5,318 nt of DNA from a virus. Its lineage: Duplodnaviria > Heunggongvirae > Uroviricota > Caudoviricetes. Shown one piece after another: positions 4,979 to 5,318 of the stretch (within the stretch, counting starts at the first letter, position 1; the number at the start of each line of letters is the position of its first letter). The position numbers were made by a program, and so were the translations under genes. Location: the IMG/VR virus record IMGVR_UViG_2706794492_000015, one strand, 5' to 3'. The notes beneath the pieces are model-generated. The model saw nothing but the letters and a program-made list of their open reading frames with translations, was not told where the DNA came from and did no database searches.

Positions 4979-5134
4979 TTACTCCTCAGGTTCGTAAGCT
5001 GTGAAGACAGCGACCTCCGTCTGGCCGGTTCGGATTCGTACCTCGCAGAGGTCTTTCCTCGTTACCAGTGCCGTCACTATGACGGTTAAACAGATGACGA
5101 TCAGGGCGATTAGCATCGCCTTTTGCTGCTTCAT
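4979..5134 (-). CDS. hokD: Hok/Gef-family type I toxin (small membrane-damaging peptide), 51 aa
   Basis: Translation MKQQKAMLIALIVICLTVIVTALVTRKDLCEVRIRTGQTEVAVFTAYEPEE matches my memory of E. coli HokD/RelF and is a typical Hok protein (hydrophobic N-terminal helix, TRKDLCE...R.G..EVAA/VF). ATG at 5134 preceded by AAGGAG with a 9-nt spacer. The 70-aa ORF-track version adds an in-frame N-terminal extension from an ATG at 5191. Confidence 0.85.
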   Translation of the reverse strand: MKQQKAMLIALIVICLTVIVTALVTRKDLCEVRIRTGQTEVAVFTAYEPEE

Positions 5135-5238
5135 AGCCTGCTTCTCCTTGCCTTTCGGCACGTAAGAGGCTAACCTACGTGTGTAGAGCATAGATATGGC
5201 CTCAGATTAATGTTAAGCGTCTTGCCGGACGCGTAATG

Positions 5239-5318
5239 TTAACTGGGGCTTTTCTCTATCTGCCGTTGGTGTTCATGCCCGAGGCAGATAGCCTCAAGCA
5301 CCCGCAGCAATTCTACTT
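5239..5318 (-). CDS. Possible 3' end of an upstream gene entering from the right edge (C-terminus ...VELLRVLEAICLGHEHQRQIEKSPS); product unknown
   Basis: Only one of the three minus-strand frames is open from the window edge; it ends at TAA (5241..5239), about 100 nt upstream of hok. The C-terminus does not match E. coli RelE as I remember it. Could be chance. Confidence 0.2.
   Translation of the reverse strand, partial: VELLRVLEAICLGHEHQRQIEKSPS

Follow-up and report, generated by a model that had tools for sequence, protein, structure and literature searches.

The right end of a 5,318-nucleotide (nt) stretch of viral DNA (IMG/VR virus record IMGVR_UViG_2706794492_000015, called the window below) carries, as we conclude with high confidence, a complete type I toxin-antitoxin ("host-killing") module, hok/mok/sok, that belongs to the hokD/hokW subgroup and is located in a lambdoid prophage of Escherichia coli O157:H7. 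This reading spans the parts of the module, which are shown by sequence, homology and folding, and also its dynamics, which we infer from the hok/sok locus on plasmid R1 and from hokW-sokW of the Sakai prophage 5 (Sp5). At the level of the sequence, every part that is defined for R1 hok/sok was shown to be present in the window locus and in register. An initial annotation of the window had suggested that hok may have a leader of its own here and lie outside the relBEF context. This suggestion held, as the leader is intact and relBE is absent upstream.

Any implication of novelty was not supported, since the locus is the common intact form. It is already known in this ordinary form, and close relatives were annotated and experimentally tested. 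When a 469-nt query was searched, it was found to be 100% identical in many E. coli O157:H7 chromosomes, where the RefSeq name is hokD. Of 5426 complete E. coli genomes, 4728 contained related copies (median 2, at most 10 per genome), and 3905 of these genomes had a copy that covered at least 80% of the query, leader included. The intact locus is the common form and K-12 hokD is a derived, truncated form; the window keeps the ancestral arrangement. Intact multi-copy chromosomal hok/sok loci have been documented (PMC4147584), and a preprint documents the enrichment of hok in prophages (bioRxiv 10.1101/2025.08.07.668861). The discovery value is small, as this is the standard intact form of a module carried by most E. 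coli genomes. The coordinates are now fixed for all regulatory elements, including Sok (Table 1).

The toxin gene and the mok frame

The open reading frame (ORF) of 51 residues matched the Pfam family PF01848 HOK_GEF with E = 1.2e-23 and 82.9 bits against a cut-off of 22. The encoded Hok is 100% identical to K-12 HokD/RelF, in line with the match named in the initial annotation, and the identical protein was found in at least 80 phage contigs. The NCBIfam Hok models matched the ORF below their curated cut-offs only (48.5 versus 73), and the assignment uses Pfam and the HokD identity. Overproduced K-12 RelF/HokD was reportedly toxic in the work of Gerdes et al. from 1986. In the 95% identical hokW-sokW, HokW from the 51-residue ORF alone is toxic and Sok neutralises Hok (PMC8621323).

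The Tyr47 codon of Hok is TAC and is followed by a G (4993..4996, minus strand), which makes a UACG context. According to the preprint, A-to-I editing by TadA recodes tyrosine to cysteine in hokB, and similar editing is described for hokC, hokD and hokE (bioRxiv 10.1101/2025.08.07.668861).

Upstream of hok, the initial annotation had pointed to an in-frame ATG at 5191 with a GAGG ribosome-binding site, giving a product of 70 residues that could act like mok. The start codon was confirmed at 5191..5189, which puts it 57 nt before the hok ATG, and a role as mok is supported by the same position and frame as K-12 mokC. In K-12 mokC/hokC, the two starts are 57 nt apart and in frame with a common stop codon. 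In phage records, the homologous ORF carries the annotation mok, or the locus is labelled MokW. The mok ORF crosses the hok Shine-Dalgarno sequence (SD), and its translation is predicted.

A survey of the mok frame covered 80 IMG/VR contigs whose Hok is identical, as well as the window, phage Rac and K-12 hokC. The in-frame mok of 70 residues with the 57-nt offset was found in 67 sequences, and K-12 hokC has an equivalent of 69 residues. In 11 loci the offset is 56 nt, which results in a mok of 19 residues with a TGA that overlaps the hok ATG (ATGA). Phage Rac has an offset of 58 nt and a mok of 68 residues that is out of frame, similar to R1. Three contigs were without the leader: L042 and L046 have the K-12-type relE junction, and L087 has a third, unrelated upstream sequence. 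The predicted mok start is conserved among these loci; the mok frame and the product are not. In R1, mok must be translated only up to the hok SD (PMC9841398). The occurrence of three mok frames with an identical toxin agrees with the established view that the translation of mok matters and its product does not.

It is quite improbable that the true product of the locus is the 70-residue protein, made from ATG 5191 as the single start and with neither a separate leader peptide nor translational coupling. The in-frame ORF of 70 residues is the commonest form in the survey, and the predicted folds hide the hok SD by pairing, which would both fit such a product. However, the identical Hok is also encoded by the 11 loci with the 19-residue mok and by the one with the out-of-frame mok. 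In these loci hok must start at its own ATG, so that the N-terminal extension is dispensable. Moreover, no other part of the locus varies as much as this extension. The toxicity of HokW from the 51-residue ORF alone and the limit of the R1 mok requirement to the hok SD argue in the same direction.

The hok mRNA and the antisense RNA Sok

When the locus was aligned to the R1 and K-12 hok loci, as had been proposed in the initial annotation, hokC, hokB and R1 hok aligned over the full length from the mRNA 5' end through the terminator, and K-12 hokD from about position -17 only. The Rfam model RF01794 matched 5303..5129 with 111.7 bits (gathering score 59, E = 1.2e-25) over the full model positions 1-157. 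As controls, hokC, hokB, hokE, R1 and hokW matched RF01794 as well, and no match to it was obtained with the truncated K-12 hokD or the IS150-truncated hokA. RF01794 is named "sok antitoxin" (157 nt), yet it matched the hok-sense strand in all controls and actually models the hok mRNA leader. The strand of the match therefore does not give the orientation of Sok.

The -10 box of the hok promoter was placed by homology and is predicted 6 nt upstream of the mRNA 5' end that is conserved in the alignment. The -35 box, TTGCGG, is separated by a 16-nt spacer and lies 14-19 nt past the right edge of the window (6982-6987 in the identical locus L001). Just upstream of the -35 box there is a perfect 22-nt palindrome, CGATATGGGAATTCCCATATCG, at L001 6948..6969, about 33-54 nt past the right edge. 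An isrK-like Rfam match over the hok 3' untranslated region (UTR) reached 20 bits against a gathering score of 50 and was treated as chance.

Folding of the full-length mRNA (5303..4890) gave a minimum free energy (MFE) of -165.8 kcal/mol (z = -5.8); together with the RF01794 match, this places the whole locus well outside what chance would give. In this fold, the nucleotides 1-12, known as tac (translational activator), pair with the fbi (fold-back inhibitory) element near the 3' end. Alternatively, nucleotides 1-8 of tac can pair with nucleotides 53-59 in ucb, the anti-Shine-Dalgarno box. In the MFE folds of both the full-length mRNA and its 5' 175 nt, GCCCCAG of ucb pairs with CUGAGGC, leaving a C/A mismatch that faces the A of the SD. 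The same C/A mismatch is present in R1, where A106G adds a pair and locks the mRNA closed (PMC9841398). In the full-length fold, the pairing partner of the hok SD is a CUCUU upstream of it. When the 5' 175 nt were folded, the closed MFE structure had -62.1 kcal/mol, and the open structure, constrained to the tac/ucb pairing and to the pairing of the SD with dcb (downstream complementary box), had -57 to -58 kcal/mol. The predicted gap of 4-5 kcal/mol between closed and open is compatible with a switch.

The conservation of the helices was analysed in an alignment of 58 distinct relatives with a mean column identity of 96%. Of all helix cells, 96.4% were paired versus 33-42% in the slid-partner controls, and in the tac/fbi helix 100% of the cells were paired. 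Compensatory two-sided changes were observed in helices 2, 4 and 5. The tac sequence is invariant in the 58 distinct family mRNAs, and hokB keeps the tac/fbi pairing by a change from U-A to C-G.

At the 3' end, the initial annotation had seen a 9-bp stem with a GAAA loop after the hok stop codon (4971..4950). This hairpin was recovered with one G.U pair in the stem, and the additional pair U4972-A4949 makes 10 bp. The spacing of eight nucleotides after the stop needs a small correction, as the 9-bp stem begins with the 8th nucleotide itself. None of 200 shuffled sequences reached the -19.6 kcal/mol of the hairpin (z = -4.4). In the alignment, its fifth pair (339/352) was G.U in 35, A-U in 18 and G-C in 5 sequences and was unpaired in none. 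A strong hairpin of different sequence is found at the same place in hokB, R1 and hokW. In the R1 3' UTR, 19 loss-of-toxicity substitutions break a C-G pair in the terminal stem, the truncated mRNA was absent in both terminal-stem mutants tested, and the stem is thought to be protective against 3'-to-5' exonucleases (PMC9841398). By analogy, the best reading of the GAAA hairpin of the window is that it forms the 3' end of the mRNA after processing and would protect this translatable form. Further downstream, the terminator of the window reads CUCGC-UUCG-GCGGU, versus the consensus CCCGC-UUCG-GCGGG followed by Ts in 56 of the 58 relatives.

The initial annotation could not place Sok with confidence. 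The promoter and the RNA are now placed by the register with K-12 sokC and by the identity with the sokW promoter. In K-12, sokC is annotated on the opposite strand with 59 nt (GTTCAG...CTCTAT), starts 8 nt inside mokC and runs upstream. The predicted Sok of the window consists of a single-stranded 5' tail of 15 nt with complementarity to the mok start region, followed by a long hairpin and the U-rich 3' end UUUUCUCUAU. The candidate folded with -31.8 kcal/mol (z = -4.65) and shares the architecture of tail, hairpin and U-tract with sokC, sokB and sokE. In Sp5, sokW is reported to have 71 nt complementary to the hokW 5' UTR, and the antitoxin activity was lost in a promoter-less sokW mutant in which TAACCT was changed to GAGCCG (primer YO-421; PMC8621323). 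The sok promoter stretch of the window is identical to the probe YO-597 that was used for the Sp5 hokW mRNA, and its -10 box is identical to the sokW -10 box that was mutated. In the RefSeq record of the identical chromosome, Sok is unannotated.

Around the mok start, a patch of 26 nt (5173..5198, minus strand) was hypervariable in the otherwise near-invariant locus. It comprises the mok SD spacer, the ATG and the codons 2-6, and on the plus strand it corresponds to the Sok 5' tail (5183..5198) and the spacer between the sok -10 box and +1. In the family alignment, the mean column entropy of the patch was 0.64 versus 0.02 in the hok coding sequence. Common polymorphisms were found in 16 of the 26 patch columns, versus 1 of 51 third-codon positions. 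For the Sok-tail target of 16 nt, 12 alleles were counted, which differ from each other by a median of 6 mismatches. Since Sok is a cis-antisense RNA, a mutation in the patch alters Sok and its target together. Diversifying selection, which would stop co-resident prophage hok/sok copies from neutralising each other and give each prophage a private antidote, is a possible but rather doubtful explanation. The patch evidence equally allows a relaxed constraint on the mok codons 2-6. Same-genome copy pairs for the patch numbered two only, of which one was identical and one different.

Table 1. Positions of the hok/mok/sok elements in the window
Feature	Position	Strand	Basis or remark
hok promoter -10 box TAGAAT	5310..5315	-	homology with hokC TATAAT and R1 hok TATGAT
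Full-length hok/mok mRNA, predicted, about 410 nt, 5' GGGUGCUUGAGG to terminator T-run	4890..5303	-	start of the Rfam match, alignment, fold
tac (translational activator), GGGUGCUUGAGG	5292..5303	-	mRNA 5' end
ucb, anti-Shine-Dalgarno box, AAAAGCCCCAG	5243..5253	-	predicted to cover the mok SD when closed and to pair with tac when open
mok Shine-Dalgarno GAGG	5200..5203	-	8 nt upstream of ATG 5191; invariant in the alignment of 58 relatives; homologous to R1 GAGG
mok reading frame, 70 residues, in frame with hok (N-terminally extended Hok)	4979..5191	-	ORF list
dcb (downstream complementary box, GCCUC)	5166..5170	-	predicted to pair with the mok SD region when open; Rfam consensus structure
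hok Shine-Dalgarno region AAGGAG, within the mok frame	5144..5149	-	read from the sequence
hok toxin gene, 51 residues	4979..5134	-	Pfam HOK_GEF; identity to K-12 HokD/RelF; TAA stop 4981..4979
Post-stop GAAA hairpin, predicted 3' terminal stem-loop of the processed hok mRNA	4949..4972	-	fold, variants, relatives
fbi (fold-back inhibitory), CCUCAACGCACCC	4917..4929	-	12 pairs with tac, one bulged C
hok mRNA intrinsic terminator, UUCG loop and T-run	4890..4909	-	homology; weakened in the window copy
sok promoter, -35 TTGCCT 5148-5153, 17-nt spacer, -10 TAACCT 5171-5176	5148..5176	+	homology
Sok antisense RNA, predicted, about 71-77 nt	5183..5259	+	ends by register with annotated K-12 sokC

Relatives in Sp5, R1 and K-12

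The hokW-sokW locus of Sp5, which is an Stx2 phage (Takada et al. 2021, PMC8621323), has 94.8% identity to the window over the 388 nt between the mRNA 5' end and fbi. Both loci are carried by a lambdoid prophage, have an identical tac, sok promoter and Sok hairpin, and have mok in frame at a distance of 57 nt. Several of the published hokW-sokW primers and probes match the window exactly. The Hok C-terminus differs, reading TAYEPEE in the window and VDYESEK in HokW (4 of the 51 residues differ), and in the mok start/Sok-tail target region the window has an allele different from that of hokW-sokW. The hairpin after the hokW stop has a UAAU loop and a bulged stem, and hokW is without the UUCG terminator of the window.

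The hok/mok/sok system of plasmid R1 (parB) has the same order of tac, ucb, mok SD, dcb, hok SD, terminal stem-loop, fbi and terminator. In R1 as in the window, the 5' end of Sok is complementary to the first three mok codons. The two mRNAs are about 64% identical, and in R1 an offset of 58 nt puts mok and hok in different frames. HokW and R1 Hok have a protein identity of 44% (Takada et al., PMC8621323). The carrier is a plasmid for R1 and a prophage for the window, and the likely roles are plasmid maintenance for R1 and a prophage-related one for the window. With hokC/mokC/sokC (gef) of K-12, the window is 77.6% identical over the mRNA and shares the mok geometry as well as the Sok architecture and register. 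The Sok hairpin of the window is 18 nt longer due to an insertion, giving about 77 nt versus 59 nt for sokC. In K-12, a copy of IS186 is located just downstream of hokC.

The hokD gene (relF) of the K-12 Qin prophage encodes the identical Hok, and between -17 and the terminator its DNA has 96.9% identity to the window. The downstream neighbours are of the same kind as those of the window and include a DUF968 gene. In K-12 hokD the promoter, tac, ucb, the mok start and sok are replaced by relB-relE, whereas the window is undisrupted. The homology breakpoint is about 17 nt upstream of the hok ATG (5135..5150, minus strand), where relBE-bearing DNA replaced the Qin leader.

The identical Hok, and a Qin-like prophage with DUF968, rusA and Q downstream as in K-12, could also suggest a K-12-type relB-relE-hokD operon in which the frame at the right edge of the window is the upstream toxin or antitoxin gene. 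This has practically no probability and was refuted by the extended sequence. A relB-relE pair immediately upstream had been named in the initial annotation as the finding that would speak against a separate hok locus; in the identical O157:H7 chromosome no relB or relE was present within 7 kb upstream of the locus, and a DUF551 gene and a small hypothetical gene are found there. The right-edge frame ends in ...EHQRQIEKSPS (TAA 5241..5239) and not in RelE, as had been noticed before. In the identical O157:H7 chromosome, a TAA across the window edge closes this frame, leaving at most 23 codons from a TTG. As all of it falls inside the predicted hok promoter and 5' leader, it is not a gene. The end of the K-12 hokD homology about 17 nt upstream of the ATG also stands against such an operon.

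Predicted mechanism and prophage setting

For the hok/mok/sok module of the window, we propose that the hok mRNA starts near G5303 and is a stable, inert molecule of about 410 nt, in which tac and fbi would be paired and ucb would lie over the mok ribosome-binding site. Slow 3' exonucleolytic trimming would strip the terminator and fbi and halt at the GAAA hairpin (4972..4949), which would shield the truncated mRNA. The 5' end would then refold, and the pairing of tac with ucb would expose the mok start at 5191. Ribosomes on mok would cross the sequestered hok SD, leading to the synthesis of Hok, and the in-frame arrangement may also yield the extended Hok of 70 residues. In the quiescent prophage, the short-lived Sok would be present in excess, and its 5' tail would pair with the mok start region, block translation and trigger cleavage by RNase III. 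Upon loss of Sok, Hok would be made, insert into the inner membrane and kill or lyse the cell.

In Sp5, sokW vanishes and HokW appears after RecA-dependent prophage induction, and the deletion of the locus halves phage release (PMC8621323). Since hok of the window is sense-oriented in the early-right operon, read-through after induction could disturb the convergent sok promoter and titrate Sok.

The function of the window copy is predicted by analogy to R1 hok/sok and Sp5 hokW-sokW, and several points weigh against the proposed reading. The MFE structure of the truncated mRNA was the closed, metastable 5' fold and not the open one. The alignment of the 58 relatives is only about 4% divergent, which makes the evidence from covariation thin. 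A consensus promoter scan did not call the sok promoter, and its -10 box fits 3 of the 6 consensus positions. Likewise, the hok terminator was not called by the consensus scan in the window, and its stem had -5 kcal/mol with z of about 0, no better than shuffles. As the sok promoter and the hok terminator are under the scan thresholds, both were placed by homology. Finally, the preprint reports that the chromosomal hokA, hokB and hokC could not mediate post-segregational killing (bioRxiv 10.1101/2025.08.07.668861), so that the activity of a chromosomal or prophage copy cannot be assumed.

The locus could be a silent or decaying passenger, intact in sequence but with a toxin production that never becomes meaningful, which is what had been proposed for several hok loci on chromosomes. 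The reported failure of hokA, hokB and hokC, the terminator that is degraded compared to the consensus and the DUF968 pseudogene in the same, partly decayed prophage would fit to this. We consider it improbable, because every regulatory element is intact, tac is invariant and all tac/fbi cells are paired, Hok is identical in at least 80 phage contigs, and activity with an effect on phage release has been described for the 95% identical hokW-sokW.

The complete module has its place, in FRIK944, in a lambdoid prophage after the immunity and replication genes and a DUF551 gene. Downstream follow the DUF968 pseudogene, rusA, the Q antiterminator gene and a DNA methylase gene, all on the same strand. 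The locus sits in the early-right (nin-like) region of the prophage, upstream of rusA and the Q antiterminator. The DUF968 gene is split in the window into the ORFs 4187..3636 and 3684..3349 (minus strand), and in the identical chromosome it is a pseudogene in RefSeq, interrupted by an internal stop, which shows partial decay of the prophage.

Two prophage small RNAs (sRNAs), AgvB and STnc100, were matched with confidence by Rfam models near the left edge of the window, at 167..228 (plus strand) and 231..431 (minus strand). The anti-GcvB sRNA AgvB scored 96.5 bits (gathering score 56) and STnc100 scored 150 bits (gathering score 47).

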